NCBI GenBank assembly: GCA_041653875.1
Contig: JBAZEM010000003.1
Span: forward strand, 102,424 to 166,423
Direction of reading: 5' to 3'
DNA length: 64,000 bases
Origin: Kiritimatiellia bacterium
GTDB taxonomy: Bacteria > Verrucomicrobiota > Kiritimatiellia > JAAZAB01
The notes under the pieces were generated by a model. It had not been told where the DNA came from. It saw only the letters and a list, made by a program, of their open reading frames with translations, and searched no databases. The position numbers and the translations under genes were made by a program. This document shows, piece after piece, positions 758-63,157 of the stretch. Position 1 is the stretch's first letter. Each line of letters opens with the position of its first letter.

Positions 758-761
758 AATC

Positions 762-835
762 GAATGAAGAATGTAGAATGTAGAATGCAAAATTAAAACG
801 CAATTTAGTTTCTGCATTCTGCATTCTTCATTCTG
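762..835. repeat. Imperfect inverted repeat/hairpin built from 'gaatgcagaatg' units (family G) between galU stop and the RACo-like start
   Basis: Left arm cgaatgaagaatgtagaatgtagaatgc (762-788). Right arm gcattctgcattcttcattctg (814-835) is its reverse complement with two G/T differences. Related motifs at 17385-17420 and 34640-34668. Confidence 0.6.
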
Positions 836-47124: not shown

Positions 47125-47826
47125 ATGTGCGAAAAATGTGGATGTTCAGATCGTGCGAGCCATCACCGTGCGTCAGACCATGACCGCGCGGACCTGCGCC
47201 ATCTGGACCACCTTGCGGAACAGAATCGAATGTTTTTCCAATCCAAGCGCGTGCTGGCCATCAATGTGCTGTCGTTTTCCTCATCCAGCGCCCGTCCGTT
47301 GCTCCGGCAAACGGTGGCCGAATGGGGCCGGCATCGTCATGTGGCTGTGGTGGACAGCGTCTTTTTGGAGTCCATTCATGCGGCCCATGATCATGAGTCC
47401 AGCCATTGCCATGCCCACGACGAGGCCGGGGAGGATCTGGGGTTGCTGGATGCGCACAAAATCAGCCATGCATTGCACGCCCTGGATTTGGACGGGGTGG
47501 ATGTTCTTCTCCTGGAAAACGGCGGAAGCGCCGCCTGCCAGGCGCTGAACGATTTGGGCGAAGTCCTCCGCGTAGCGGTCTTTTCCGTCCGGGATGGCGA
47601 ACTGAAACCGCTCAAGTTTCCTCCATTTTTCCAGAAGGCCGACGCTGTCGTTATCCAGGACATGGATCAGGCGGACGCGCTCGGCTTTGACCTGAGCAAG
47701 GCCCGCGCAAACGTCCGGAGCGTGGCGCCCCAGGCCGCGTTACTGGAGGCCTCGGCTCGCACGGGAACGGGGCTTGGCGAATGGTATGCGTTTTTGGAAG
47801 CGGGTTTGAAACGGTTCGAGGCGTAA
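47125..47826 (+). CDS. HypB-like (G3E family) metallochaperone homolog with degenerate Walker A / G4 motifs
   Basis: N-terminal MCEKCGC (HypB high-affinity Ni CxxCGC). His-rich stretch. Region aligns to HypB NLVSSPGSGKTTLL but reads NVLSFSSSSARPLL. CH and ENxG..C metal motifs are retained. The NKxD position reads QDMD. Confidence 0.6.
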   Translation: MCEKCGCSDRASHHRASDHDRADLRHLDHLAEQNRMFFQSKRVLAINVLSFSSSSARPLLRQTVAEWGRHRHVAVVDSVFLESIHAAHDHESSHCHAHDEAGEDLGLLDAHKISHALHALDLDGVDVLLLENGGSAACQALNDLGEVLRVAVFSVRDGELKPLKFPPFFQKADAVVIQDMDQADALGFDLSKARANVRSVAPQAALLEASARTGTGLGEWYAFLEAGLKRFEA

Positions 47827-47844
47827 GGTAGTCTCCGAGGAATG

Positions 47845-48040
47845 GAGTGACTTTTTCATGTAGAGCCGATTTTATGTCGGCTATCTTCGGGGCATAATAG
47901 CCGGTATTCCGCCAAAAGCGGATCCGCCTATGGAGGAAAAACCGGCTCTACATCGGATTGTCCGCCCCAGGCTGATCCGCCTCCCGCCGCCGCATAAAGC
48001 CATGGCTGGCAGGCTGGCGAAAAATTCCTTAACATCAACG
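47845..48040. repeat. Family A MITE-like repeat copy upstream of the HMT gene
   Basis: tgtagagccgattttatgtcggctatcttcgg...ggcggatccgcctatggaggaaaaaccggctctacatcggattg. Confidence 0.7.
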
Positions 48041-48079
48041 CGGATGGAAAACACAAACGGCAACAAGGAGAAAGTCGGC

Positions 48080-48976
48080 ATGGCAAAGAATACAATCGCG
48101 AATGAAGTCCACAAGGGGCGCGTTCTGGTATCCGACGGGGCATGGGGAACGTTTTTGCAGAAGAAAGGCTTGAAGACGGGCGAATGCCCTGAACTCTGGT
48201 GCGTAACGCACCAACCGGATGTGCTCGACATTGCCAGGAGCTATATCGCCGCCGGCGCCGACATGATCGAATCCGACAGCTTCGGCGGCACACGCTACAA
48301 ACTGGAGCATTTTGGCCTGGCGGACCGCACCGCGGAAATCAATAAAGCCGCCGCCGCCATTTCCCGGGAAGCGGCCGGCGCCGACAAGTGGGTGATCGCC
48401 TCTGTCGGCCCAACCGGACGGATGACGGCCATGGGCGACGTGACGGAGCAGGATTTGTATGACGCGTTCAAGGAACAAGCCCTGGCCCTGGCCGCCGGCG
48501 GCGCGGATGCGTTGTGCATCGAAACCATGAGCGCCCTGGACGAAGCCTCCGCCGCGATCCGCGCCACGCGCGAAAACACAAAATGCGAAGTCATCTGCAC
48601 GTTCACGTTCGATCGCACCCTGCAGGGCGGATATCGAACCATGATGGGCGTATCGCCGACTGAGGCGGCCCGCGCGGCCGTGGCCGCCGGCGCCCATGCG
48701 ATCGGCGCCAACTGCGGCAACGGCATGGAACGGATGATCGAGATCGTGAAAGAAATGCGCGCGGCGGCGCCCAAGACCCCGATCCTGGTGCATGCCAATG
48801 CCGGCCTGCCGAAGAACGTGAACGGCGTGGACGTCTTTCCGGAAACTCCGGCTGACATGGCCGGCCGCGTGGCGCCCCTGGTGGCGGCCGGCGCAAACAT
48901 TATTGGCGGATGTTGCGGCACCACGCCGGCGCATATCGCGGCCATCCGCAAAGCAGTGGACGGATTAAAACGTTAA
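48080..48976 (+). CDS. Homocysteine S-methyltransferase-domain protein (MetH Hcy-binding/MmuM-like, Zn-dependent)
   Basis: GGCCGTTPAHI zinc motif, GANCGNG, TIM-barrel Hcy-domain pattern. AAGGAG RBS and ATG at 48080. The listed ORF start lies in a repeat. Confidence 0.75.
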   Translation: MAKNTIANEVHKGRVLVSDGAWGTFLQKKGLKTGECPELWCVTHQPDVLDIARSYIAAGADMIESDSFGGTRYKLEHFGLADRTAEINKAAAAISREAAGADKWVIASVGPTGRMTAMGDVTEQDLYDAFKEQALALAAGGADALCIETMSALDEASAAIRATRENTKCEVICTFTFDRTLQGGYRTMMGVSPTEAARAAVAAGAHAIGANCGNGMERMIEIVKEMRAAAPKTPILVHANAGLPKNVNGVDVFPETPADMAGRVAPLVAAGANIIGGCCGTTPAHIAAIRKAVDGLKR

Positions 48977-48997
48977 CCTGGAACGAAAGGAGCCCGT

Positions 48998-50059
48998 ATG
49001 AGCTTTCAACCGAAATTTTTGGCCTCGGCCATCGGCAGCATGCCCTTCGATAACGCGGATTACGCCGTGGAAGTTTCACTGAAGAACCTGCCGCAGGCGC
49101 CGATTTGGCCGCAGCTTCCCAAATTCGGCATGAACGAACAGATGGAGATTCAGTATTCCGAAGGCATGCCCTGCGCCGTGATCGACCGGGACAAGCAGCG
49201 CCTCTATTTCAACACGTCCGGCGATTACTCCGAGTCCTTTGCCGCGTTTTACGAGACGTATATGGCCGCGACCGAAGGCGGCGATCTCTCCGCCCTGGCC
49301 ATCAGCCCCGCTTTTTCGCGCGGCATTTACGCCTTGGAAAAGCGTCTCCAGGCCGGCGGCAAAAAGCTGCCCTACGTAAAAGTGCAGACCACCGGGCCGT
49401 GCAGTTTTGCCCTGACGATCGTGGACGAAAACAAGCGGGCGATCTATTACAACGAGGAATTCCTCGACATGATCGTAAAGACCCTGGCGCTGAAATGCCG
49501 CTGGCAAATCCGCAAGTTCAAGCCGTTTGCGGAACGCATCATTTGTTTCGTTGACGAGCCCATTCTCTCCGCCTTCGGCAGTTCGACCTATGTATCGGTC
49601 AAACGCGAAGACGTGGTCGCCCGAATCGGCGAAGTGGTCGAGGCGATTCATGCGGAAGGCGGACTCGCCGGCATTCATTGCTGCGGCAACACGGAGTGGA
49701 GCATCCTGATCGACGCGGGTGTGGACATCGTGAATTTTGACGCCTTCGGTTTCGGCGAGACGATCGCCATGTATGCCGACGCGGTCAAAAGCCACCTCGC
49801 CCGGGGCGGCGTCCTGGCCTGGGGGATCGTGCCGACTTCCACGGCCATCCGGGAACAAACCGCGGATACGCTGGCCGCCAAACTGGAGCAGACCATGCAA
49901 CACCTCGCCGGCAAGGGGATCGATCCGGCCTTGATTGCGCAACAAGCCATGCTGACGCCGTCATGCGGCACGGGTTCGCTGGAGCCGGCCGACGCGCTCA
50001 AGGTCTTCGAAACGCTGGCGGCGCTGTCCGTGAAAATGCGGGCGCAATACCGGTTTTAA
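48998..50059 (+). CDS. Core-MetE-like (cobalamin-independent methionine synthase catalytic-domain family; UroD-like fold) methyltransferase
   Basis: FVDEPIL (MetE IQIDEPA-type motif). HCCGN and SCGTGS Zn-ligand motifs. 353 aa. Confidence 0.6.
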   Translation: MSFQPKFLASAIGSMPFDNADYAVEVSLKNLPQAPIWPQLPKFGMNEQMEIQYSEGMPCAVIDRDKQRLYFNTSGDYSESFAAFYETYMAATEGGDLSALAISPAFSRGIYALEKRLQAGGKKLPYVKVQTTGPCSFALTIVDENKRAIYYNEEFLDMIVKTLALKCRWQIRKFKPFAERIICFVDEPILSAFGSSTYVSVKREDVVARIGEVVEAIHAEGGLAGIHCCGNTEWSILIDAGVDIVNFDAFGFGETIAMYADAVKSHLARGGVLAWGIVPTSTAIREQTADTLAAKLEQTMQHLAGKGIDPALIAQQAMLTPSCGTGSLEPADALKVFETLAALSVKMRAQYRF

Positions 50060-50095
50060 CCGCAAAGCGCGCGAACTCCGGCGGAGGAGGCGACC

Positions 50096-50311
50096 ATGAG
50101 CGACATCCGGTGTCCGGGACAGGACCAGCGCTATTGGAAGCCGGGCGATATTTTTTACGCCGGCTGTCCCTGGTGCGGCGCGGAAATCGAATTTTGGAAG
50201 GACGAGCCGGTTCGGATTTGTTCGAAATGCAGGCGCGAAGTGCGGAATCCACGAATGGACCTTGGATGCGCCAAGTGGTGCAAAGAGGCGGACAAATGCC
50301 TGGGACGCTGA
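50096..50311 (+). CDS. Small 8-Cys zinc-ribbon-like protein
   Basis: 71 aa. CPGQ...CPWC...CSKC...C..C...C pattern. Strong GGAGGAGG RBS 5-6 nt upstream. Confidence 0.5.
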   Translation: MSDIRCPGQDQRYWKPGDIFYAGCPWCGAEIEFWKDEPVRICSKCRREVRNPRMDLGCAKWCKEADKCLGR

Positions 50312-50321
50312 AAACGACTTC

Positions 50322-51095
50322 ATGAAAATAGCCATTTCAGGCAAGGGCGGGGTCGGAAAGTCAACCTTGGCGGCGGCGCTGTCCTTGCTTCTGGCGCGCA
50401 AGGGCCGGCAAGTGCTGGCCGTGGATGCCGATCCGGACTCCAATCTCGGGGCATCCCTGGGCATCCCGGCGGCGGACCGCCGGGCGATCGTGTCCATTGC
50501 CCGCCAAGTCGCCTTGATCGAGGAGCGCACGGGCGCGAAAGTCAGCCAGTTCGGCCAGGTCTTTAAGATGAATCCGGATGTCGCGGATATCGCGGATACT
50601 TTTGCCTGGCGGCACAACGGCGTGGCCTTGCTGGTGCTGGGCGCGGTGAAACGGGGCGGAGGCGGATGCGCTTGTCCGGAGAATGTGCTGCTCAAGGCGC
50701 TGGTGACCGAGTTGGTGTTGCGGCGGGACGAGGCCCTGGTGATGGACATGGAAGCCGGCATCGAGCATCTCGGACGGGGCACGACCCGGGGCGTGGATCT
50801 GATGCTGGTTGTGGTGGAGCCCGGCCAGCGGTCTCTGGATACCGCCCGCCGTGTGTTCGAGTTGGGCAGGCAACTGGGCTTGCGCCGTTTCCGGGTCGTG
50901 GCGAATAAAATCGCGAGCCCAGCCGACGAAACCTTCGTCCGTTCGGCCTTTAACGAGGAAGAATTGATCGGCGCGATTCCGTATTCCGAGGCCTTGCGCG
51001 GAGCGGACCGGGATGGCCGTTCCGTGTTGGACGGCATCCCCCCGGACATCCTGGCCAGGTTCGAAACAATTTTACGGCAAGTTGAACAAACGTAA
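50322..51095 (+). CDS. cooC: CO dehydrogenase nickel-insertion ATPase CooC
   Basis: P-loop SGKGGVGKST. CACPE Ni-binding CxC motif. Confidence 0.85.
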   Translation: MKIAISGKGGVGKSTLAAALSLLLARKGRQVLAVDADPDSNLGASLGIPAADRRAIVSIARQVALIEERTGAKVSQFGQVFKMNPDVADIADTFAWRHNGVALLVLGAVKRGGGGCACPENVLLKALVTELVLRRDEALVMDMEAGIEHLGRGTTRGVDLMLVVVEPGQRSLDTARRVFELGRQLGLRRFRVVANKIASPADETFVRSAFNEEELIGAIPYSEALRGADRDGRSVLDGIPPDILARFETILRQVEQT

Positions 51096-51141
51096 GCGCA
51101 AACACTTACAATCGACAATTTGTTAGGAACAGGAGCCAAGA

Positions 51142-51375
51142 ATGAGCATCACGGATATTGAGCGTCAGAAATATGTCCGCCTGATCGCGCGCGTGGAAGA
51201 GTTGGAAGCCCGCGTGGCGGAACTGGAAGACGAAATCGCCTTCGATAAAGACTCCGGCCAATCCCAGGATGGGGCCTTGGTGGCAGACGAACTGCGGGCG
51301 GCGCAGAACAAATTGGCCGCGGCGCGCACCGAGCTGGCGCGCGTCAGCGACGGTTGCGGAAAACCCCACGGATGA
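51142..51375 (+). CDS. Small coiled-coil protein between the two cooC genes
   Basis: 77 aa, heptad-like EELEARVAELEDE. AGGAG RBS. Confidence 0.4.
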   Translation: MSITDIERQKYVRLIARVEELEARVAELEDEIAFDKDSGQSQDGALVADELRAAQNKLAAARTELARVSDGCGKPHG

Positions 51376-51418
51376 CCGGCAACGATTTTTTCAACCACGA
51401 GCGAAGAAATTGACGCGT

Positions 51419-52198
51419 ATGAGTTTCACGATTGCCATAACGGGCAAAGGGGGGGTCGGCAAAACGACGCTCGCGGGTCTTCTGGTGAAACGCCTGATCG
51501 CCTCCGGACGCCGGCCCGTCCTGGCCGTGGACGCGGACCCCAACACCTGTTTGGACGCCGCGCTGGGCGTAAAAATCCGGCAGACGGTCGGCGGCGGCCG
51601 GGAAGAGGCCCGTCAAATCGCCGGCAAGGGGCTGGCGTCCGGCATTTCCAAACAGCAACTGTTGGAGCTGAAAATCGAGGAAAGCTTGGTGGAGGCCGAG
51701 GCTTTCGATTATCTCGCCATGGGACGGCCCGAGGGGCCGGGCTGTTATTGCTATGCCAATAATGTATTGAAATCGGCCTTGGAGACGCTGGCCGGCCATT
51801 ACCCCTATGTGGTGCTCGATAACGAGGCCGGATTGGAAAACCTCTCGCGCCGGATCGTGCGCAAAGTGGATCTTTTGATCATGGTGTCGGACCCGTCCCG
51901 CCGCGGCTTGGAAACGGTGCGGCGCTTGCACGCGCTGGCGCGGGAAATGGGCGTGGCCTTCGACCGTCTGGCTTTGGTGGTCAACCGCCTGCGGCAGGAA
52001 ACGCTGCCCGCGGAGGTCGAGGCCGTCCGCGCTGAAACCGGCGCCCAGGCGGTCTGGGGTTTGCCGGATCTCGCGGCGGTGGCGGAGCGAGCGGAGCGCG
52101 GCGAGTATGGATGCGACCTTCCGGCGGACAACGCGCTGGTGCGAAAAGTGGATGAGTTGCTGCGGGTTTTAGTGCCTGGCCGCGAAACTGGAGGATGA
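51419..52198 (+). CDS. acsF: CooC/AcsF-type Ni-insertion ATPase (second paralog)
   Basis: P-loop TGKGGVGKTT. CYCYAN CxC motif. Confidence 0.8.
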   Translation: MSFTIAITGKGGVGKTTLAGLLVKRLIASGRRPVLAVDADPNTCLDAALGVKIRQTVGGGREEARQIAGKGLASGISKQQLLELKIEESLVEAEAFDYLAMGRPEGPGCYCYANNVLKSALETLAGHYPYVVLDNEAGLENLSRRIVRKVDLLIMVSDPSRRGLETVRRLHALAREMGVAFDRLALVVNRLRQETLPAEVEAVRAETGAQAVWGLPDLAAVAERAERGEYGCDLPADNALVRKVDELLRVLVPGRETGG

Positions 52199-54159
52199 TC
52201 AACGATATGACAACGGAGACGAAACCAACCAAAAAAGCGGAAGATCGCGCCTGGGATGCGGCCTCCGTTGCGGTGTTGAACAAGGCCGCGGCGGAGTGTA
52301 TCGACACCTGCTTCAGCCGCATGGACACCCAGCAGAACCAATGCGCCTTCGGCAAACAAGGCATCTGTTGCCGGATTTGCTATATGGGGCCTTGCCGCAT
52401 CACGGCGAAAGCCCCCCGCGGGGTGTGCGGCGCGGATGCCGACACCATTGTGGCCCGCAATTTGCTCCGCGAAGTGGCCGGCGGCACCGCGGCGCATTCC
52501 GACCACGGACGCCACCTGGCGCTGCTGCTCAAGCGCGTCGCCGAAGGGCAAGGCGGCGATTACCGGATCAAGGATGAAGCCGTCTTGCGCCAGGCGGCCC
52601 GCTGGTACCAGGTCGAAGAAAGCGGCCGGGCGGCGAACGCCGTGGCGCTGGATCTGGCCAAATTGTTCTTGAACGAGTTTGCCTCGCAGGAAGAGACGCT
52701 CCGGACTTTGGCGCTGGCGCCGCAGAAACGGCGGAGCGTCTGGGAAAAAGAAGGCATCCAGCCGCAGGGGATCGACCGCATGTGCGTGGAAGCCCTGCAC
52801 CGCTCGACCATGGGCGTGGATCACGATTACGCGCATCTGCTGAGCCATGCGTTCCGAACCGCCTTGGCCGATGGCTGGGGCGGATCGCGGATTGCCACAA
52901 TCGTGTCCGATATTCTCTTCGGTTCGCCCGCGCCGGTGCGCAGCGAGGCGAATCTCGGCGTGCTGGGCGCCAAAACCGTGAACGTGGTGGTCCATGGCCA
53001 TGAACCCGCGCTTTCCGAAATGCTGGCCATTGCGTCGCAGGATGCGGACATGCTGGCGCTGGCGCGCGCGGCGGGGGCGGAAGGCATCACGCTGGCGGGC
53101 ATTTGTTGCACCGCCAACGAAATTTTGATTCGCCGCGGCATTCCGATCGCCGGGAATTTGCTGCAACAGGAATTGGCGATCGTCACCGGCGCCGTCGAGA
53201 TGATGGTGGTGGATGTGCAGTGCTGCATGCCCAGCTTGCCGACCGTGGCCGCGGCTTATCACACGGAAGTCGTTTCCACCAGCGCGATCGCCAAGACCCT
53301 TGGCACCACGCAGGCGGCCTTTGACGAGGAAAAGGCCCTGGCCTGCGCCAAGGACCTGCTCCGCCGCGCCATTGCCAACTTCAAGAACCGCCAGAGCGCC
53401 AAAGTCGCGATTCCGCCCTTGCGCTCGCCGCTGGTGGCCGGCTTTGGCGTCGAGGCAATCAAATATATGCTCGGCGGCCGTTACCGCGCCTCGTTTCGTC
53501 CGTTGAACGACGCCATCATGCAGGGCCGCATCCACGGCGTGGTGGGAATTGTCGGTTGCAACAACCCCAAGACGCGGGTCGATGAATACATCAACACCCT
53601 GACCAAGGCCTTGATCCAACGCAATGTGCTGGTGCTTAAGACCGGTTGCGCGGCGATTGCCTCGGCCAAGGAGGGACTCTTGACGCCCGAGGCGGCCTTG
53701 GAAGCGGCCGGGCCCGGCCTGCGCGAAGTGTGCGAAGCCATCGGCATCCCGCCGGTCTTGCACATGGGCAGTTGCGTGGACAATTCCCGCATCCTCGAGG
53801 CCGCCACGGAGGTCGTGCGGGAAGGAGGCTTGGGCGACGATCTTTCCATGATCCCGGCCGTGGGGGTGGCGCCGGAATGGATGAGCGAGAAAGCCGTGGC
53901 CATCGGCTTCTATTTTGTCGCCTCGGGCGTGGACGTCATCCTCGGGCATCCTTTCCGCATCGCCGGTTCGGCCAAGGCAACCCAATTCCTGAACACGGAT
54001 GTCCGTGAATCGTTCGGCGCAAGCTTCCACGTTTGCGAAGACGCGCCCGCCGCCGTCGAGCGGATTTTCGAACTGCTCGACCAGCGCCGCGAAAAATTGG
54101 GAATCAACCGCAAGATGGAGCGCAAGCTCTTTGACATGAAAGACAGGAGAGGCGTATAA
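52195..54159 (+). CDS. cooS: Anaerobic Ni-Fe-S carbon monoxide dehydrogenase catalytic subunit (CooS/AcsA)
   Basis: GICCRICYMGPCRI B/D-cluster motif. C-cluster ligand regions (HGH, GICCTANE, GCNN..., MGSCVDN). Alternative start ATG 52207. Confidence 0.85.
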   Translation: MINDMTTETKPTKKAEDRAWDAASVAVLNKAAAECIDTCFSRMDTQQNQCAFGKQGICCRICYMGPCRITAKAPRGVCGADADTIVARNLLREVAGGTAAHSDHGRHLALLLKRVAEGQGGDYRIKDEAVLRQAARWYQVEESGRAANAVALDLAKLFLNEFASQEETLRTLALAPQKRRSVWEKEGIQPQGIDRMCVEALHRSTMGVDHDYAHLLSHAFRTALADGWGGSRIATIVSDILFGSPAPVRSEANLGVLGAKTVNVVVHGHEPALSEMLAIASQDADMLALARAAGAEGITLAGICCTANEILIRRGIPIAGNLLQQELAIVTGAVEMMVVDVQCCMPSLPTVAAAYHTEVVSTSAIAKTLGTTQAAFDEEKALACAKDLLRRAIANFKNRQSAKVAIPPLRSPLVAGFGVEAIKYMLGGRYRASFRPLNDAIMQGRIHGVVGIVGCNNPKTRVDEYINTLTKALIQRNVLVLKTGCAAIASAKEGLLTPEAALEAAGPGLREVCEAIGIPPVLHMGSCVDNSRILEAATEVVREGGLGDDLSMIPAVGVAPEWMSEKAVAIGFYFVASGVDVILGHPFRIAGSAKATQFLNTDVRESFGASFHVCEDAPAAVERIFELLDQRREKLGINRKMERKLFDMKDRRGV

Positions 54160-57100
54160 TGTCTAAACTCATCTGCAGCAACGCCATCGATGGCGCCATC
54201 GAATGGGTGGCCCGGGCCGAAGCAAAACTGGCGGAGGCAATCCGCTCCAAAGGCGAAGCGTGTCCGGCGGCCTTTCCATCCACCGCGTATTTCCTGCCCA
54301 TCATCTATTCGTTCCTGGGCCAAAAGGTCGCCACCCTCGGAGACATGCGGAGCATTCTGCGCCGCGCCAAGGAACTGCTCCCGGCGCGGCCGTCCCGGCA
54401 GGTCTGGCTGCCGTATTTGGGCAATACGCTGGATGCCGGCGTGGCCGCGCTTTTTGCGTGCGAGATTCTGGAAGCCTGCAAGTATGTCATCGGCCCCAAC
54501 CCGGTGGAAGGCATTTGGCTGGGCGCGGCCAACGACGTGATCATGCGCGAGCGCGGCATCGAGTTCGTGGATGGAACGGCGCCGGGATTCGCCGCCATTG
54601 TCGGCGCGGCGCCGAACAAGGAAATCGCCGTGCAGATCGCCCGGGAATTACAGCAAAAGAATTTGTACGTGTTCATGGCCGGTTGCACGAATGGCGTGCA
54701 GTTCGCCGAACAGCTCGCCGAGGCCGGCGTGCAGCTGGGTTGGGAAACCCGACTGGTACCGTTCGGCCGCGATGTTTCGGCGGCGGTTTACGCCCTGGGG
54801 TTCGCCAACCGCGCGGCCCTTTCGTTCGGCGGCGTCAAGCCCGGCGATTACGAAGCCAACCTGAAGTATAACAAGAACCGTATCTTTGCCTTTGTGCTGG
54901 CGCTGGGCGAAGTGACGGCCGACAAATATGCCGTGGCGGCCGGCGCGATCAATTACGGCTTCCCGGTCATCGCGGACACCAACATCCCGCAGATCCTTCC
55001 CACGGGGGTGTGCACCTACGAGCATGTGGTATCCAACGTCCCCTACGAGAGCATGGTGGAACGCGCCCTGGAAGTCCGCGGCTGTAAAATCAAGATCGCC
55101 AAGGTGCCGATTCCCGTGCCCTATGGCCCGGCCTTCGAGGGCGAGCGCATCCGCAAGGCGGATGTTCATGCGGAGTTCGGCGGCAACCTGACGCCCGCGT
55201 TCGAATTCGCCACCTCCGTGGGCCTGGACCAGATCAATGACGGCGAGGTGGAAATCATCGGGCCGGATATCGACCAGGCGCCGGCCGGAACGGCGCTGCC
55301 TTTGGCCATCTGGGTGGAAGCGGCCGGGCGGAAAATGCAGCCGGATTTCGAGCCCATTCTGGAACGCCAGATCCATCACATGCTTAACGGCGCGGAAGGC
55401 ATCTGGCACATGGGCCAGCGCGACATCGTCTGGACGCGCGTCTCCAAGGCCGGGTTTGCCAAAGGCCTGCGTCTGCGCCATTACGGCGATATCCTCCATG
55501 CCAAATTGTTGTCCGACTATCCCGCCATCGTGGACAAGGTCAAGGTGACGCTGGTGACGGACCGGGCGGAAGTCGAGAAGCGCCTGGCCGTGGCCCGCAA
55601 AGTGTATGACGAGCGCAACCGCCGGCTGGAGACCATGACCGACGATTCCGTGGATACGTTTTACTCCTGTCTGCTGTGCCAGTCCTTTGCCCCCAACCAC
55701 GTCTGCATCATCACGCCCGAACGCCTGGGCTTGTGCGGCGCCTACAACTGGCTGGACGGCAAGGCGGCCTATGAAATCGACGAGACTGGCCCAAACCAGC
55801 CGGTGAAAAAAGGCGAATGCCTGGATCCGGTCAAGGGCGTGTGGAAGGGCATCGATGACTTCGTCTATGTGAACAGCCACAAGACCGTCCCTTCGTTCTG
55901 CGCCTATTCGATCATGGACAAGCCCATGACCAGTTGCGGCTGCTTCGAAGCGATTGTGGCCTATGTGCCGGAATGCAACGGCGTCATGGTGGTGAACCGG
56001 GAATTCCTGGGCGAAACGCCCGCCGGCATGACGTTCTCGTCCCTCGCCGGAAATGTGGGCGGCGGTCAGCAAACCCCTGGTTTCATGGGATGCGGCAAAG
56101 TGTTCCTGACATCGCGAAAATTCATGTTTGCCGAAGGCGGACACAAGCGCCTGGTCTGGATGCCCAAGGCGCTTAAAAAACTGCTGGCCGACGACCTGAA
56201 AAGACGGTTTACGGAACAGGGCGCCCCGGATCTCATGGACAAGATTGCCGACGAATCGGTCGGCAGCGATGGACAGACCGTCCGCGCCTTCATGGAAAAG
56301 GTGGACCACCCCGCGCTGCGCATGGACGACATGGCCACCTATGCCGAAGCGGCGCCCAAGGCGGAGGCGGCTCCCAGCACGCCGGCGCCCGCGGCGACAC
56401 TCATGGAAACGGCGGCGGCAAAATCCCTTGCGCCAGAACTCACGCCCGGAAAACCGGACGAGGCCCCGGCATTGACGCCGGACCTGATCGCCCAGATCAA
56501 GGCGCAGGTGGCGCATGAAGTCAAGACGACACTCACACAAGAGATCGTCCGCGACATCATCGGCTCCTTGAGCCGTCAATTTCTGGGCGGCTCGAGTCCT
56601 GTTTTGCCGGCAACCGCTCCCGCGGCAATGCCCGCGGCGCCGGCGCCCGTTGCCGCCCGCGCGCCGGAGTCAAAAAAGCCAGGCGTTGCGGAGCGCCTGG
56701 CCGCTGTCCGGACATTTACCATCAAGAAAGAGGCCTGCGAAGTCCCGGTGTGGACCGTGAAACTCGGGGCCACCAAGGCCGAAGGCGGAACGCGCGGCCG
56801 CACCTATATGATCGGCGGCGCCAAAGCGTTGCCGTTTCACGGCTGGGAAGGCAAGGCCGCCAATCCGCCGCGCATTGCCATGGAAGTTTACGATGTGGTG
56901 AGTGAAAAGTATCCGGCCGTGTTGCGCGCGATTTACGGCGACCTGTTAAACGATCCGGCGGCCATGGCGCGTGAATGCGTGACCAAGCACGGGGCCGATT
57001 TGATTTCCGTGCGCTTGGACGGCACCCACCCGGAGCGCGGCAACCGCTCGCCGGAACAAGCCGTCGAAGTCGTCCAGTCCGTGCTCCGGGCCGTGGATGT

Positions 57101-57674
57101 GCCGTTGATTGTCACCGGCCACAACAATTTCGACCGGAACAATGAGGTCATGAAGGCGGTGGCCCAGGCGTGCGCCGGTGAAAACCTGCTCTTGAACTGG
57201 GTGGAACAGAACAATTACCGGACGATCGCCGGCGCGGCCATTGCCTACAACCATGCCGTCGTTGCGCAGGCGCCCATCGACGTGAACATCGCCAAGCAAT
57301 TGAACATTCTGCTGACGAATATGGATTTGAAACCCGAGCGGATTGTCATGGACCCCATGACCGGCGCGCTGGGCTATGGCATCGAATACACCTATTCGGT
57401 CATGGAGCGCATTCGGCTGACCGGACTCGGCGGCGACAAGATGCTGGCCGGCCCGCTGATGGTCGCGCCCGGACCGGAATGCGTCAAAGTCAAGGAATGC
57501 AAGGCCGCGGAACGGGATTTCCCGGCCTGGGGTAATCTGGCCCAGCGCGCCGCGCTCTGGGAGCTGACCACCGCGCTCAGCCTGCTGTATGCCGGCGCCG
57601 ACCTGCTTGTCCTGAACCATCCGGATGCCGTTCGGGAACTGAAGTCGGCCATCGCACAGTTGATGGAGGAATAA
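54159..57674 (+). CDS. acsB: Acetyl-CoA synthase AcsB fused through an Ala/Pro-rich linker to a CFeSP small-subunit (AcsD/CdhD-like) TIM-barrel domain
   Basis: AcsB A-cluster motif CGCFE plus CLLCQSFAPNHVC. C-terminal ~330 aa match AcsD (GGTRGRTYMIGG, IAMEVYD, MDPMTGALGYGIEY). 1171 aa in total. Confidence 0.8.
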   Translation: MSKLICSNAIDGAIEWVARAEAKLAEAIRSKGEACPAAFPSTAYFLPIIYSFLGQKVATLGDMRSILRRAKELLPARPSRQVWLPYLGNTLDAGVAALFACEILEACKYVIGPNPVEGIWLGAANDVIMRERGIEFVDGTAPGFAAIVGAAPNKEIAVQIARELQQKNLYVFMAGCTNGVQFAEQLAEAGVQLGWETRLVPFGRDVSAAVYALGFANRAALSFGGVKPGDYEANLKYNKNRIFAFVLALGEVTADKYAVAAGAINYGFPVIADTNIPQILPTGVCTYEHVVSNVPYESMVERALEVRGCKIKIAKVPIPVPYGPAFEGERIRKADVHAEFGGNLTPAFEFATSVGLDQINDGEVEIIGPDIDQAPAGTALPLAIWVEAAGRKMQPDFEPILERQIHHMLNGAEGIWHMGQRDIVWTRVSKAGFAKGLRLRHYGDILHAKLLSDYPAIVDKVKVTLVTDRAEVEKRLAVARKVYDERNRRLETMTDDSVDTFYSCLLCQSFAPNHVCIITPERLGLCGAYNWLDGKAAYEIDETGPNQPVKKGECLDPVKGVWKGIDDFVYVNSHKTVPSFCAYSIMDKPMTSCGCFEAIVAYVPECNGVMVVNREFLGETPAGMTFSSLAGNVGGGQQTPGFMGCGKVFLTSRKFMFAEGGHKRLVWMPKALKKLLADDLKRRFTEQGAPDLMDKIADESVGSDGQTVRAFMEKVDHPALRMDDMATYAEAAPKAEAAPSTPAPAATLMETAAAKSLAPELTPGKPDEAPALTPDLIAQIKAQVAHEVKTTLTQEIVRDIIGSLSRQFLGGSSPVLPATAPAAMPAAPAPVAARAPESKKPGVAERLAAVRTFTIKKEACEVPVWTVKLGATKAEGGTRGRTYMIGGAKALPFHGWEGKAANPPRIAMEVYDVVSEKYPAVLRAIYGDLLNDPAAMARECVTKHGADLISVRLDGTHPERGNRSPEQAVEVVQSVLRAVDVPLIVTGHNNFDRNNEVMKAVAQACAGENLLLNWVEQNNYRTIAGAAIAYNHAVVAQAPIDVNIAKQLNILLTNMDLKPERIVMDPMTGALGYGIEYTYSVMERIRLTGLGGDKMLAGPLMVAPGPECVKVKECKAAERDFPAWGNLAQRAALWELTTALSLLYAGADLLVLNHPDAVRELKSAIAQLMEE

Positions 57675-57740
57675 GGCGCGGCTAATCCGTTTTGCCAAAA
57701 CCAAGAACCAATTTTTTTGGGCTAATTTAATCAAGCCTTC

Positions 57741-57833
57741 GGTTATTTTGCCGTTCTATCGAACGGCCACTACGCCGAATGGCCTGTCTGAACTCGGCCA
57801 GGGGTGTAGCTGCGGTTCGACAGAACCGCTGTG
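57741..57833. repeat. Family C hairpin repeat between acsB-D and acsC
   Basis: ttttgccgttctatcgaacggc...gtgtagctgcggttcgacagaaccgct. Confidence 0.65.
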
Positions 57834-57896
57834 TTTTGAATTCACTTAACATCGAGAACGGAACAATATCCAATTCGACAACCAACGAGGTGACGC

Positions 57897-59234
57897 ATGG
57901 CGCTTACCGGTTTGCAAATCCAAAAACTGCTCCCAAAAACCAACTGCAAGGAATGCGGCTCCAACACCTGCCTGGCCTTTGCCATGAAACTGGCGGCGAA
58001 AAAGGCGGACTTGTCCGCATGCCCTTACGCATCGGAAGAAGCCAAGCGCGTGCTCGGCGCGGCGAGCGAACCGCCGGTCCGGGAGATCGCGCTCGGCGGC
58101 GGCCGCCGGCTCAAACTGGGCGCGGAAACCGTCCTGTTTCGCCATGAAAAAACGTTCGTGAACCAGACCGCGCTCGCGGTGAATGTGAACGACACCGATG
58201 AACCCGCGGCGCTGGCAAAGACGTTGCAGGCCATTCGCGATTACGTGCTGGTGCGCGTGGGTGAAACCCTGCTGGTGGAGTTGGTTTGCGTGACCCAAAA
58301 AGGGAATAGCCCGGCCCGCTTTGCCGCGCTCGCCAAACAGGCGTGGGAGACCGTTAAGCGGCCGCTCATTCTGCGCAGCGCCGACGCGGACGCCCTGCGC
58401 GAAGCGGCGGCGGCCGTCAAAGGCTCCGGCAGCGTGCTGGCCCCCGCCACGCCGGAAGCCGCCCGCGCGCTGGCGGCGGTCGCCAAAGAAAACGGTCATG
58501 CCCTGGCCGTCACCGCGCCGGATTTGAACGATTTGACGGCGCTGGCCGCCGGCTTGAGAGCAGAGGGGTTCGGCGATCTGATCCTGCAGTTTCAGACGCA
58601 TTCGCTGGCCGAACAATTCCAGACCAATACGATTGCCCGGCGCGCCGCGCTCAAGGACAATTACAAACCGCTCGGCTATCCCAGCCTCCGGTTCGTGGAA
58701 GGCGCCGAACTGCTCGCCTGCGCCACCCAGGCTGTCACGGAAATCTGCAAGTATGGCGGCATCTGCGTTCTGCCGGTTTTCGATCCGGCGCTCTTGGCCG
58801 TCCTTATGACCCTGCGCTTGAATCTTTATACTGACCCTCAAAAACCGATCCAGGTGGAGCCCAGGATTTACCCCGTGGGCGAACCCAAACCGGATTCGCC
58901 GGTGTTTGTGACCACGAACTTCTCGCTGACCTATTTCATTGTGTCCGGCGAAATCGAAAACAGCGGCACAAGCGCCTGGCTGGTGGTCCCGGAATGCGAA
59001 GGCATGAGCGTGCTCACCGCCTGGGCGGCCGGGAAATTCTCCGGCGCCTCGATCGGGAAATTTATCAAGGAGTCCGGTCTGGAACAACAAGTCACGACGC
59101 GTCACATCGTGATCCCCGGATATGTCGCGCAAATCAGCGGCGAACTGGAAGAAAGTCTCCCCGGCTGGAAAGTGCTCGTGGGGCCGCAGGAAGCCGCCGA
59201 TATCGAGAGCTTTGTCAAGGCGCGGCTGGCATAG
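57897..59234 (+). CDS. acsC: Corrinoid iron-sulfur protein large subunit (AcsC/CdhE)
   Basis: N-terminal CKECGSNTC...CPY [4Fe-4S] motif. TIM-barrel and C-terminal corrinoid-binding region. Confidence 0.85.
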   Translation: MALTGLQIQKLLPKTNCKECGSNTCLAFAMKLAAKKADLSACPYASEEAKRVLGAASEPPVREIALGGGRRLKLGAETVLFRHEKTFVNQTALAVNVNDTDEPAALAKTLQAIRDYVLVRVGETLLVELVCVTQKGNSPARFAALAKQAWETVKRPLILRSADADALREAAAAVKGSGSVLAPATPEAARALAAVAKENGHALAVTAPDLNDLTALAAGLRAEGFGDLILQFQTHSLAEQFQTNTIARRAALKDNYKPLGYPSLRFVEGAELLACATQAVTEICKYGGICVLPVFDPALLAVLMTLRLNLYTDPQKPIQVEPRIYPVGEPKPDSPVFVTTNFSLTYFIVSGEIENSGTSAWLVVPECEGMSVLTAWAAGKFSGASIGKFIKESGLEQQVTTRHIVIPGYVAQISGELEESLPGWKVLVGPQEAADIESFVKARLA

Positions 59235-59244
59235 GTCCGCCCGG

Positions 59245-59810
59245 CCCCGAATTCGGGCGCGGCACGGCCGCTGCACATTCTGTGCTGAAGATAACCGACG
59301 TGAAGTCGGCTCTACATGAAATAGTTGTGGAATTAGCCGCATAATTTAATTTAATAGGAAATTGCTCTCGGGTAGGGCCGGACTGCCAGTCCGGCCTCAG
59401 TCACGGAAGAACGGCGGGAAGCGGATATGCCTATGGCATGACAATCGGTGTAGAGCCGGTTTTTCCGCCATAGGCGGATCCGCTTTTGGCGGAATACCGG
59501 CTATTCTGTCCGAAGATAGCCGACATAAAGTCAGCTCTACATGAAAAAGTTGTGGAGTTAGCCGCACAATTTAATCTAATAGGAAATTGCTCTTGGGTAG
59601 GGCCGGACTGCCAGTCCGGCTTCAGTCACGGAAGAACGGCGGGAAGCGGATATGCCTATGGCATGACAATCGGTGTAGAGCCGGTTTTTCCGCCAGAGGC
59701 GGATCCGCCTCCGGTGGAATACCGGCTATTCCGTCCGAAGATAGCCGACATAAAGTCGGCTCTACATGAAAAAGTCGCCCCGTTCCTCGGGGCCTAACTT
59801 GAACAGGTTG
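59245..59810. repeat. Two tandem ~245-bp composite MITE-like units (family A in inverse orientation + additional module) ending in a family B hairpin
   Basis: Unit 1 ~59290-59535, unit 2 ~59536-59775, >90% identical. aagtcgccccgttcctcggggcctaac hairpin at 59774-59800. Confidence 0.75.
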
Positions 59811-59844
59811 TTTATTGACGGCTCCTAAAGAAACCCTCCAAACA

Positions 59845-61773
59845 ATGCCGCTTGTCACATTCCAACCTTCGGGCCGGACCGTACAAATTCCCCCCAAAAC
59901 CGAGTTGCTGGATGCGATCCGGGCCGCCGGCGTTTCCATCGATTCGCCCTGCGGAGGACGCGGCACCTGCGGCAAGTGCATCGTCCGCATTGTCGCCGGC
60001 GCCGTGGATGCCGGCCAGAGCCTCGGGATGCTGCCCTCCGCCACGGTGGCGGATGGTTACGTGCTTGCCTGCAAGACCAAGGTGCAGGATTCCAACCTGA
60101 CCGTGGAAATCCCAGCAATACAGGCGCGGGAAGGCGCGCAAATCGCCGCGGGCGATGAAACCATCCTGGTCCGCGGCGAGCTGCTCCCAAAAAACTGGGA
60201 ATACGATTCCCTTTCCGTCAAGTGGTGCGTGGACGTGCCGCCGCCCCGGCTGGAAGACGGACTTTCCGACTTGGACCGGCTCACCCGCCGCATTCAGCGG
60301 GAATGGGGCGCCGTGGAATTGCATTACCCCTTGACGGTTATCCGCGAGGTGGCGAACGCGCTTCGCGCCCAGCAGGGCGTGGTGACCGCCACCTTGATCC
60401 GGACCCCGGAACGGATTTATGTGGTCCGCCTGGAAGCGGGCGACCAAACCACCAGCCATTATGGCATTGCCGTGGACATCGGCACCACCACGGTTTCGGT
60501 CCAGCTCGTGAATCTGGCGCTGGCGGAAATCGTGGGGACGCGCAGCGATTACAACGACCAAATCGCCTGCGGCCTCGATGTGATCGGCCGGATCAATTAC
60601 GCCCGGCGGCCGGACCGGCTCCGGGAATTGCGCGAACGAATTCTGGCCACGATCAATCGCCTGATTTGCCAGGTAACGGAGCAGCAGGGGATCGCCCCGC
60701 ATCTCGTCAGCAACGCCGTGCTCTCCGGCAACACCACGATGGTGCATTTGCTGCTGGGCCTGAACCCGGAATATATCCGGCTGAAACCCTACACCCCCAC
60801 GGTTCTGGAAGTTCCCTACCTGACCGCCGCGGAAGTCGGCATCGATATCGCCCCGGATTCCTGGATTTATATTTCCCCGAGTGTCGGCAGCTATGTCGGC
60901 GGCGACATCACCGCCGGCGTGCTCTGCACGGATTTGGCGATGGACACCGCGGACGTTAACCTCTTTATCGATATCGGCACCAACGGCGAACTGGTGGTGG
61001 GCAACAACGAGTTTCTCCTTACCTGCGCCTGTTCCGCGGGCCCGGCATTCGAAGGCGGCGGGGTCGATTGCGGCATGCGCGCGGCCCTCGGCGCCATCGA
61101 GCGCGCGGAGGTGAACCCCGAGGATGGCGCCGCCCGCTATTGGACCATCGGCAATGTCCCGCCCAAGGGTATTTGCGGTTCCGGCATGATTTCCCTGCTG
61201 GCCGATCTGATCAAAACCGGCTGGCTCGATTTCGCCGGAAAACTTAACCGTGCTCGCCCGTCGCCCGCCATTAAAATCGAAGGACGCCACGCTCACTATA
61301 TCATTGCGCCGGCCGGCCGCGACGGATTGACACACCCCGTTGTCATCAGCGAACCGGATATCGAAAATATCGTCCGCGCCAAGGCCGCCATCTATGCCGC
61401 TTGTTCGCTTTTGGTTCAGCACGCGGGCCTGACGTTCGGGGATTTGAAAAACGTTTACATCGGCGGTGGATTCGGACGGTTCCTCGATTTGGAGAAGGCC
61501 ATGACAATCGGCCTGATCCCGGAACTGCCGCGGGAAAAATACCACTACATCGGCAATTCCTCCCTGCTGGGTTCCTATATTGTGCTGGTTTCGCAGGATT
61601 ACCGCCAACGCCAATTGGAACTCGCCCGGCGCATGACGTATGTGGATCTCAGCTCGGATCCCCAATATATGGACCAGTACACCGGCGCGTTATTTCTGCC
61701 GCATACGGACCCGGCCCTGTTTCCCGGAGTTCATGCCGCGCTTCGTTCCAGCGGCATAACGCGTCCGGGATGA
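59845..61773 (+). CDS. Reductive activator of corrinoid enzyme (RACo-like: 2Fe-2S ferredoxin + ASKHA ATPase)
   Basis: MPLVTFQPSGRTV...CGGRGTCGKC 2Fe-2S motif. GIAVDIGTTT ASKHA phosphate-1. ~640 aa. Confidence 0.8.
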   Translation: MPLVTFQPSGRTVQIPPKTELLDAIRAAGVSIDSPCGGRGTCGKCIVRIVAGAVDAGQSLGMLPSATVADGYVLACKTKVQDSNLTVEIPAIQAREGAQIAAGDETILVRGELLPKNWEYDSLSVKWCVDVPPPRLEDGLSDLDRLTRRIQREWGAVELHYPLTVIREVANALRAQQGVVTATLIRTPERIYVVRLEAGDQTTSHYGIAVDIGTTTVSVQLVNLALAEIVGTRSDYNDQIACGLDVIGRINYARRPDRLRELRERILATINRLICQVTEQQGIAPHLVSNAVLSGNTTMVHLLLGLNPEYIRLKPYTPTVLEVPYLTAAEVGIDIAPDSWIYISPSVGSYVGGDITAGVLCTDLAMDTADVNLFIDIGTNGELVVGNNEFLLTCACSAGPAFEGGGVDCGMRAALGAIERAEVNPEDGAARYWTIGNVPPKGICGSGMISLLADLIKTGWLDFAGKLNRARPSPAIKIEGRHAHYIIAPAGRDGLTHPVVISEPDIENIVRAKAAIYAACSLLVQHAGLTFGDLKNVYIGGGFGRFLDLEKAMTIGLIPELPREKYHYIGNSSLLGSYIVLVSQDYRQRQLELARRMTYVDLSSDPQYMDQYTGALFLPHTDPALFPGVHAALRSSGITRPG

Positions 61774-61876
61774 GCCGGCCTGAAAGAATTACGTCCGATC
61801 CAAAGCAAGGGCTCGGTTGCGATCCAAAGACATTCCCGCGTGACAGACCGGCGCCGGATGGATAGAATCCCGTGCC

Positions 61877-63040
61877 ATGCAAGCCTCTGTTTTAAGACCG
61901 CACCCCGGCATAAACACCTTGGCTGTTCGCCGGGAGTACGAGCGCCGGTTCGGTTTCCGCACAGCCTTCACGGACACCGAAGGCCGGATCGGCGCCGGCG
62001 CCATCGATTGCGATTGTCGCGCCGCCCATGAACGCCAAGCCTTATGCCGCCGGATCGTGGCGGAATCGCTCCGCTGGGGCGAGCCGTTTATGGATCTATG
62101 CGCGTGCGAGCACATGCTATGGGGCATTCCGGTGATGGTCAACCAGCAGGTGCTCGGAGGGCTGGTCGCCTCGGCCAGCGCCGGCGATGGAAAACGCATG
62201 ACGCATCTGCGCAAAGCCGCGGATGCGTTATTAACCCTGGCGGTTGAAAACAACCTGACCAACGCCGCCCTGCTGACCGCGAACAGAGCCAAGGCGGACC
62301 GGGAACGGCAGAAAGCCGAGGCGATTCACGATTCCAAGACCGTGGATTACGATTATATCCGCTCCGTATATCTGCAGGAAGAGCCCGCCCTGATCGCCGC
62401 CATCCGCGAAGGCGAGCGCGGCGCGGCGCGCGCCATCATCAATCGTGTATTGGTCGGCATTTATTTTCTCGGCCGGCGCCGGCTCGATCTTTTGAAAAGC
62501 CTTGTATTGGAACTCGTGGTCATGATGTCGCGCGCCGCGGTCGAAACAGGCGCGGATCCCGCGGAAATACTCGGCAGTCATTATCGCAGTCTGGTGGAAT
62601 TGGACACAATCCTGGACGATGAAACCCTAACCCGCTGGCTGGCCGGCATCCTGGAACGAATCATGGATGCCATCCGCGACAAGCGGCGTTACCCCAGCAC
62701 CATCTTGCTGGGCCATGCGCTTCGGCATATGCGGGAGCATCTCGCCGGCGATATTAACCGCGACCAGGTGGCCAAGGTGGCGGGACTTTCGCCAAGCGTG
62801 TTTTCCCATCTCATGCGCGAACAACTCAACACTTCCTTTACCGAGTTGCTCACGCAATACCGGGTGGATCGCGCCGCCGAACTCCTGGCCCGGGCCACGG
62901 ACCCCATCTCGGAAGTGGCCTTGACTTGCGGCTTCCCGGATCAAAGTTATTTCACCAAAGTCTTTAAGAAGCGCATGGGAAAAACCCCGTTCGTTTACCG
63001 CCACGAACATGCTCCGGCCCTGACGGTCCCCGCAAAATGA
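61877..63040 (+). CDS. AraC-family transcriptional regulator with N-terminal PocR-like sensory domain
   Basis: C-terminal double HTH (VAKVAGLSPSVFSHLMREQ..., TCGFPDQSYFTKVFKKRMGKTP). Confidence 0.7.
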   Translation: MQASVLRPHPGINTLAVRREYERRFGFRTAFTDTEGRIGAGAIDCDCRAAHERQALCRRIVAESLRWGEPFMDLCACEHMLWGIPVMVNQQVLGGLVASASAGDGKRMTHLRKAADALLTLAVENNLTNAALLTANRAKADRERQKAEAIHDSKTVDYDYIRSVYLQEEPALIAAIREGERGAARAIINRVLVGIYFLGRRRLDLLKSLVLELVVMMSRAAVETGADPAEILGSHYRSLVELDTILDDETLTRWLAGILERIMDAIRDKRRYPSTILLGHALRHMREHLAGDINRDQVAKVAGLSPSVFSHLMREQLNTSFTELLTQYRVDRAAELLARATDPISEVALTCGFPDQSYFTKVFKKRMGKTPFVYRHEHAPALTVPAK

Positions 63041-63080: not shown

Positions 63081-63157
63081 TGGTACCCCGGAGAGGATTT
63101 GAACCTCCGACCTGCCGATTAGGAATCGGCTGCTCTGTCCAGCTGAGCTACCGGAGT
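63081..63157 (-). tRNA. tRNA-Arg (anticodon CCT)
   Basis: Reverse complement folds as a cloverleaf: acceptor ACTCCGG/CCGGGGT (one G-U), D-arm GCTCAGCTGGACAGAGC, anticodon arm GCCGA-TTCCTAA-TCGGC, T-arm GGAGGTTCAAATCCTCT. CCA is encoded. Confidence 0.8.

Follow-up and report, generated by a model that had tools for sequence, protein, structure and literature searches.

A bacterial CODH/ACS operon with homocysteine methyltransferases in place of acsE, a predicted route from acetyl-CoA to methionine

Gene content of the locus

We analysed a 64,000-nucleotide stretch of DNA from the metagenome-assembled genome of a Kiritimatiellia bacterium (assembly GCA_041653875.1, contig JBAZEM010000003.1, positions 102,424 to 166,423; hereafter the window), in which the genes at positions 47125-63040 encode the components of a CODH/ACS (CO dehydrogenase and acetyl-CoA synthase) and of its corrinoid iron-sulfur protein (CFeSP), together with two homocysteine methyltransferase-type proteins, here called HMT and MesB, and without the pterin-binding methyltransferase AcsE. 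An earlier reading of the window, made from the sequence only, had given the plus-strand order of these genes, and the open reading frame (ORF) listing and the Pfam and NCBIfam profiles agreed with it except for one label: the final gene, read as a PocR/AraC regulator, has the AraC part (HTH_18, HTH_AraC) but no PocR domain in Pfam. PocR/AraC regulators flank the operon in three relatives (loci L070, L074 and L077). The features of the cluster are as follows.

47125..47826, plus strand: HypB-type nickel-insertion GTPase (NCBIfam TIGR00073 hypB, 132 bits against a cut-off of 121)
47930..48976, plus strand: HMT, a stand-alone MetH-type homocysteine-binding domain protein (PF02574, E = 1e-69)
48998..50059, plus strand: MesB-family core methionine synthase by fold, profile alignment and MesB homology; single MetE-type barrel, 353 aa
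50096..50311, plus strand: Zn-ribbon protein, 71 aa with 8 Cys (from the sequence)
about 50322..51095, plus strand: CooC-type nickel-insertion ATPase (PF01656 CbiA family; P-loop GKGGVGKS; CxC motif GCACPEN)
51142..51375, plus strand: coiled-coil protein, 77 aa (weak coiled-coil Pfam matches only)
about 51419..52198, plus strand: second CooC/AcsF-type ATPase (PF01656; a 259-aa called gene in L001)
52195..54159, plus strand: CooS/AcsA, Ni-CO dehydrogenase (PF03063, E = 1e-158; TIGR01702, 609 bits)
54159..57674, plus strand: AcsB::AcsD fusion of acetyl-CoA synthase and the small CFeSP subunit (single 1171-aa ORF)
57897..59234, plus strand: AcsC, large CFeSP subunit (PF04060 FeS and PF03599 CdhD; NF003195, 500 bits)
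59277..59775, no strand: 225-nt tandem repeat, 2.2 copies, in the acsC-RACo spacer (TRF: period 225, 93% matches)
59845 (called start)..61773, plus strand: RACo, reductive activator of corrinoid protein (Fer2, RACo_linker, Raco_middle and RACo_C_ter; 642-aa called gene)
61877..63040, plus strand: AraC-family regulator (HTH_18, HTH_AraC)
63081..63157, minus strand: tRNA-Arg(CCT), right edge of the cluster (Rfam RF00005, ARAGORN)

To the right of the AraC gene the cluster ends, with the tRNA-Arg followed by a minus-strand zinc-type alcohol dehydrogenase gene. Within the AcsB::AcsD fusion, the Pfam domains CODH_A_N, CdhC and ACS_CODH_B_C lie at residues 21-725 and CdhD at residues 877-1104, and an Ala/Pro-rich linker connects a complete AcsB to the AcsD barrel; the corresponding NCBIfam scores are 1032 bits for NF040764 and 381 bits for NF003376 (delta subunit). 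The 225-nt tandem repeat interrupts the operon between acsC and the RACo gene, where it fills a spacer of about 610 nt, compared with 8-70 nt in relatives. This spacer has the same length in three independent assemblies, and the repeat has no Rfam match.

A MesB-family core methionine synthase

The protein encoded at 48998-50059 matched no Pfam family, and searches of Pfam, NCBIfam and PDB sequences gave nothing useful: besides a PPR match judged spurious, there was only a hit to NCBIfam PRK00957 of 26 bits. Its AlphaFold (AF2) model is one TIM barrel (predicted local distance difference test score, pLDDT, 85.5), for which the top PDB folds were the C-terminal catalytic barrels of MetE and 3rpd, a structure of MesD. 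In a profile alignment, H227, C229, D248 and C323 coincide with the E. coli MetE zinc ligands H641, C643, E665 and C726. Across the family, H227, D248 and C323 do not vary and C229 hardly does. D186, in the motif FVDEP, aligns with the homocysteine-binding D599 of MetE, while S14, in the motif IGSMP, aligns with S15 of the Dehalococcoides MesB, the counterpart of the homocysteine-binding S433 of MetE.

Members of the MesB family are recognised by 173 bits or more in phmmer against the Dehalococcoides mccartyi MesB (130 or more in the proteome survey), a single barrel of up to about 386 aa without an N-terminal folate domain, the HCDC zinc ligands, the Ser and Asp that bind homocysteine, and AcsC and AcsD encoded in the genome (Price et al. 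2021). As a reference we used a D. mccartyi-type gene from a metagenome contig (L094; 465 kb, 48% GC), located with the A481 forward primer (Deobald et al. 2020, supplement). This gene encodes 343 aa, its 3' end falls at the reverse-primer site, and its residues S15, W69, H215, C217, D236 and C312 are exactly the published ones. The window protein is 38% identical to this reference (BLASTP 236 bits, E = 3e-80) and scores 239.9 bits in phmmer; its 353 aa lack an N-terminal folate-binding domain, both the HCDC zinc site and the homocysteine-binding Ser and Asp are present, and both CFeSP subunits are encoded in the same operon. Given a score of 240 bits, above the MesB cut-off, and 38% identity, the window protein is, as judged from its sequence, a MesB-family core methionine synthase, which bears out its description as core-MetE-like in the sequence-only reading.

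The characterised Dehalococcoides MesB (core-MetE) is a methylcobalamin:homocysteine methyltransferase that does not use methyl-tetrahydrofolate (methyl-THF) (PMC7005905), and the sequence-only reading had been right to cite its use of methylcobalamin. Two other identities were considered and rejected. A first suspicion of a fifth core-MetE family, which arose from the near silence of the libraries, gave way to the 240-bit match to the recovered Dehalococcoides MesB. A methyl-THF-using analogue of AcsE was dismissed on account of the missing N-terminal folate domain and of the characterised enzyme's failure to use methyl-THF. A more distant homologue, annotated as hypothetical, is encoded on a Desulfosarcina ovata plasmid (L089, NZ_AP021877, 9980-11008) and shares 30% identity with the window MesB and 153 bits with the Dehalococcoides MesB. 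It sits in a nitrosative-stress cluster with NorR, an NO reductase, a ZIP transporter, DUF1858, FprA and Hcp, and may be a stress-induced alternative methionine synthase.

A second, MetH-type methyltransferase

In the 47930-48976 ORF the PF02574 domain of HMT begins at residue 66, and the Met at 48080 is therefore likely the true start, giving a protein of 298 aa. Among solved structures its nearest relatives are the homocysteine-binding (Hcy) domains of MetH (Thermotoga maritima 1q7m, 152 bits), ahead of betaine:homocysteine methyltransferase (BHMT; 65 bits) and YagD-type homocysteine methyltransferases (45 bits). The zinc-binding Cys3 site is conserved, in that the Cys of GANCGNG and the Cys-Cys of GGCCGT align with those of T. 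maritima MetH. Against NCBIfam, HMT reached 232 bits for BHMT and 256 bits for the YitJ N-terminal domain, both below their cut-offs. The MetH-type Hcy domain called from the sequence alone is thus upheld. HMT probably transfers a methyl group to homocysteine, as MesB is predicted to do.

The remaining parts of a MetH are missing. Pfam finds PF02574 alone in HMT, with no pterin-binding, B12-binding or S-adenosylmethionine (AdoMet) domain. Neither as domains of HMT nor as split genes did we find PF00809, a B12-binding domain (PF02310/PF02607) or an AdoMet domain; tblastn with the folate and B12 domains of MetH gave no match in the window, which holds no Rossmann-type B12 protein.

Absence of acsE from the operon and its surroundings

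The sequence-only reading had seen no AcsE-type ORF in the 64 kb, and this held in two kinds of search. No window ORF of at least 200 aa contains a PF00809 (pterin-binding/AcsE) domain according to Pfam, none appears among the Pfam hits precomputed for called genes, and tblastn of the E. coli MetH folate domain against the window gave no match at E <= 1. The left flank (L004) contains nothing relevant to acsE. The same was true of related loci, the selection of which is given below: tblastn with the MetH folate domain, MetF and FolD found none of them in any flank of 80 loci, and the 10 kb downstream of RACo were free of PF00809 genes in 4/4 contexts.

Set against a canonical acs cluster, the operon contains acsA/cooS, acsB, acsC, acsD, cooC/acsF and a corrinoid activator, but no clustered acsE. 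Canonical acetogens always have acsE in one cluster with acsBCD (PMC5039349). The gene for formate-THF ligase (fhs) is found directly upstream of the operon in 2/80 loci (L040 and L069).

Conservation and spread of the operon

A scan of one genome per species returned 328 relatives, of which the best 80 (66-83% identity) were analysed with their flanks; in the counts that follow, the denominators are the loci long enough to judge each gene. These best 80 belong to species genomes of about 14 phylum-level groups, the carriers being found in Lentisphaerota/Victivallales, Verrucomicrobiota including Kiritimatiellia, Planctomycetota, Bacteroidota, Bacillota, Spirochaetota, KSB1 and Omnitrophota, as well as in Zhuqueibacterota, Acidobacteriota/Aminicenantes, Ignavibacteriota, Syntrophales/Deferrimicrobium, Raymondbacteria, Chitinivibrionales and Sumerlaeota. 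Throughout them, mesB adjoins cooC-cooC-cooS-acsB::D-acsC-RACo: the first CooC was found in 73/74 loci, the second in 60/63, CooS in 55/57, AcsB in 50/52 and AcsC in 45/48, and AcsB and AcsD were matched as a single fused high-scoring segment pair in 46/52. As essentially the same gene set recurs in 80/80 related loci, the arrangement is far from what chance would produce. The linkage of HMT to core-MetE that the sequence-only reading had singled out is likewise kept, with HMT directly upstream of mesB in at least 55/72 loci (a lower bound) and elsewhere in the operon in others (in the middle in L096, at the tail in L095).

One subtype of the operon has no adjacent HMT (L022, L037, L043, L045, L051, L067). 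It carries CooF and an FAD/NAD(P) oxidoreductase between the second cooC and cooS, and its CooS and that of the window share only about 50% identity.

Some of the small genes are conserved as well. The 77-aa coiled coil between the two cooC genes was found in at least 15 loci at 38-50% identity, and the Zn-ribbon protein, possibly a metallochaperone or an Fe-S/redox partner, shows 61-80% identity among relatives of different phyla. The Zn-ribbon gene moves with the operon in varying position and strand (L095 13771-13983; L096 12101-12310; L097 12527-12721). The locus flanks stop near RACo, and four further contexts centred on RACo homologues were fetched; in 4/4 of these a DUF3786 gene directly follows RACo, often together with the Zn-ribbon gene (DUF3786 at L095 11922-12545, L096 12417-13013 and L097 11904-12503). 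DUF3786 is also present upstream of HMT in L033, L034, L036, L047, L063 and L086. It is absent from the window, where the AraC regulator takes its place after RACo. De novo clustering of all flanking ORFs revealed no further conserved neighbour, the genes upstream of the operon being heterogeneous among relatives (regulators, transporters and such), and hypB is found 5' of the operon only in the closest relatives (L008-L014).

All operon genes are near 70% identical across phyla. Downstream of the operon, relatives carry transposase fragments or a phage-type integrase (L097 12959-13648; L096 20492-21649), and several independent assemblies break just past the tRNA-Arg(CCT). The tRNA edge, the assembly breaks and the transposase and integrase genes are consistent with a mobile island. 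Given the identity of about 70% across phyla, the unconserved flanks, the tRNA at the edge and the transposase or integrase in L097 and L096, the operon is best read as a module that spreads horizontally.

Other features of the window

A second RACo/DUF4445 paralogue runs off the left edge of the window (2-817, minus strand; L004 11953-13872). It stands alone beside a hybrid histidine kinase, with no corrinoid protein closer than 8 kb, implying that the genome encodes another corrinoid system at a different site. A gene for an AbiEii-type nucleotidyltransferase toxin (PF08843; 43235-44011, plus strand) is located about 3 kb upstream of the cluster.

Comparison with known systems

The closest functional parallel is D. 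mccartyi, the core-MetE of which (MesB; cbdbA481/DET0516) belongs to the same protein family, with the HCDC zinc site and without a folate domain. The same logic has been proposed for its incomplete Wood-Ljungdahl (WL) pathway, in which a methyl group passes from acetyl-CoA through AcsB and CFeSP to homocysteine without AcsE (PMC7005905, PMC7857596); label from acetate's methyl group was found in methionine, and MesB and MesC were predicted to draw on the corrinoid protein (PMC7857596). However, mesB of D. mccartyi is not beside the acs genes (L094), and there is no CODH, so that CO is released, whereas in the window mesB lies inside an operon with CooS, two CooC, RACo, an AcsB::AcsD fusion and a second, MetH-type transferase. 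In methanogens, mesB is linked to CFeSP genes in mesB-acsC-acsD operons, from which CFeSP was read as the donor (Price et al. 2021, Fig. 3B). Those operons are archaeal and contain CFeSP genes only, while the operon described here is bacterial, spans about 14 phylum-level groups and combines the complete CODH/ACS set with HMT, the Zn-ribbon gene and, in relatives, DUF3786.

The canonical bacterial cluster (acsA-acsB-acsC-acsD-acsE-cooC/acsF-acsV) shares CooS/AcsA, AcsB, AcsC, AcsD, two CooC-type ATPases and RACo, with canonical domains, but differs in having acsE, in lacking mesB (with or without HMT) and in encoding AcsB and AcsD separately; the operon also has no adjacent methyl-branch genes apart from fhs in the two loci mentioned. 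With MetH, including its split forms, the operon shares the MetH-type Hcy barrel with its Cys3 zinc site and a RamA/RACo-type activator, as found with split MetH, although it lacks the pterin-binding, B12-binding and AdoMet domains. Finally, in the methanol:coenzyme M (CoM) methyltransferase MtaABC a Zn-activated thiol likewise receives a methyl group from a corrinoid protein, but the thiol acceptor predicted here is homocysteine rather than CoM, and no MtaA/URO-D family protein is encoded.

A predicted route from acetyl-CoA to methionine

We read the locus as a CODH/ACS-CFeSP operon that is self-contained and horizontally mobile and in which homocysteine methyltransferases replace AcsE and methyl-CFeSP is passed to homocysteine, and we estimate the probability of this reading at roughly 0.55. 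The sequence-only reading had proposed such a wiring of the ACS/CFeSP methyl pool to homocysteine methylation, and it gains support from the MesB membership, from the invariant CODH/ACS/CFeSP neighbourhood in about 80 species, in which AcsE never occurs, and from the proximity of HMT to the MetH Hcy domain, a methylcorrinoid-using type.

In the predicted sequence of steps, the AcsB part of the fusion would cleave acetyl-CoA, and the methyl group would move to the corrinoid of CFeSP (AcsC and the AcsD part), which the fusion would tether to ACS. MesB would then transfer the methyl group from methyl-Co(III) to zinc-activated homocysteine to form methionine, and HMT would probably do likewise. 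CooS would oxidise the CO to CO2, giving reduced ferredoxin; the two CooC and HypB would mature the Ni sites, and RACo would re-reduce accidentally oxidised Co(II). Overall, acetyl-CoA + homocysteine would give methionine + CO2, and the acetyl-CoA methyl group can probably enter methionine directly.

CFeSP is the only corrinoid carrier encoded in the operon. We infer that it supplies the methyl group under physiological conditions, that HMT and MesB share this donor, and that the net direction runs from acetyl-CoA to methionine. Moving a methyl group from methyl-Co(III) onto a thiolate is strongly exergonic, which favours the cleavage direction. This direction is further favoured by the operon variant without HMT, since the CooF and FAD/NAD(P) oxidoreductase that it carries beside CooS are regarded as a CO-oxidising unit (PMC6344411).

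Several observations weigh against this route. Two non-homologous enzymes predicted for one reaction look redundant, and the full Ni, Fe-S and B12 machinery seems a high price for a biosynthetic step of low flux, yet the operon is widespread, including in gut lineages. No SAM, methionine, B12 or THF riboswitch was found ahead of the operon in the window and nine relatives. The fhs genes of L040 and L069 hint that some hosts link the operon to folate C1 metabolism.

Alternative explanations

These two fhs loci would also suit an ordinary WL CODH/ACS that serves bulk carbon and energy metabolism through acetyl-CoA synthesis or cleavage, with AcsE encoded elsewhere in the genome and with MesB and HMT as a side tap for methionine, an arrangement like that of sulfate reducers and acetogens that have MesB. 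MesB indeed occurs in many organisms with a complete WL pathway (Price 2021, PMC7857596), and both CooS and the N-terminal CODH-docking domain of AcsB are canonical. We nevertheless find this explanation doubtful: acsE is in none of the 80 flanks or the four downstream contexts, whereas canonical clusters always hold it (PMC5039349), mesB has a fixed place inside the operon, and the hosts mostly belong to saccharolytic lineages that are not known as acetogens.

A narrower alternative concerns HMT, which might have no functional relation to corrinoid chemistry and instead act in salvage as an S-methylmethionine, AdoMet or betaine:homocysteine methyltransferase, co-transcribed with mesB for methionine supply. 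The PF02574 family does include BHMT and YagD/MmuM-type enzymes, the sub-cut-off BHMT and YitJ scores of HMT point the same way, and HMT is not beside mesB in 17/72 loci. Against this, MetH Hcy domains score 2-3 times higher than BHMT or YagD among the solved relatives, and HMT is kept in the operon even though its position shifts between head, middle and tail, which makes a salvage role improbable in our view.

The flow could also be reversed, with homocysteine and methionine replacing folate as the soluble methyl carrier in a folate-free methylotrophic acetogenesis. HMT would then make methionine from substrate-loaded methyl-corrinoid proteins (for example from methanol via MtaBC), MesB, running backwards, would methylate Co(I)-CFeSP, and ACS would join the methyl group with CO made by CooS. 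Such a scheme would explain why two different transferases that bind homocysteine or methionine stand side by side, and Zn-dependent demethylation of a thioether by Co(I) has a precedent in MtsA of methanogens. A Pontiellaceae metagenome-assembled genome (L074, 2395-9976) would fit it too, since a PocR/AraC regulator, MtaC, MtaB (E = 1e-159), CobW and a RamA-like activator are encoded directly upstream of HMT-mesB-CODH/ACS, and MtaA is absent at this locus. If true, a folate-free 'thio' version of the WL carbonyl branch would provide saccharolytic anaerobes of many phyla with a plug-in methylotrophic electron sink. This is nonetheless very unlikely, given the exergonic transfer from methyl-Co(III) to thiolate, the linkage to MtaBC in 1/80 loci only, the fit of the variants with CooF and the oxidoreductase to CO oxidation, and the fact that we know of no MesB or MetH that runs in reverse.

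Significance of the operon

The concept of a route from acetyl-CoA to methionine is already published: it was proposed for Dehalococcoides (Deobald 2020, PMC7005905) and generalised to MesB and MesC in the study that also reported the mesB-acsCD operons of methanogens (Price 2021, PMC7857596). In the literature that we searched, we found no description of a bacterial operon with full CODH/ACS in which mesB replaces acsE, of its partnership with a MetH-type Hcy domain, its AcsB::AcsD fusion or its conserved Zn-ribbon and DUF3786 genes, or of its occurrence in lineages not regarded as acetogens.

The in vivo donor of MesB-type methionine synthases has so far been a prediction, and the operon provides strong genomic-context evidence for CFeSP in this role. 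The operon's compact set of about 12 genes could also be expressed together, which would allow direct tests of methyl transfer from methyl-CFeSP to homocysteine. For the organisms concerned, the presence of acsB and cooS in Kiritimatiellia, Victivallales, Bacteroidales, Planctomycetota, Omnitrophota and others need not mean acetogenesis or CO2 fixation, which has consequences for metagenomic surveys that score the WL pathway by acsB alone.

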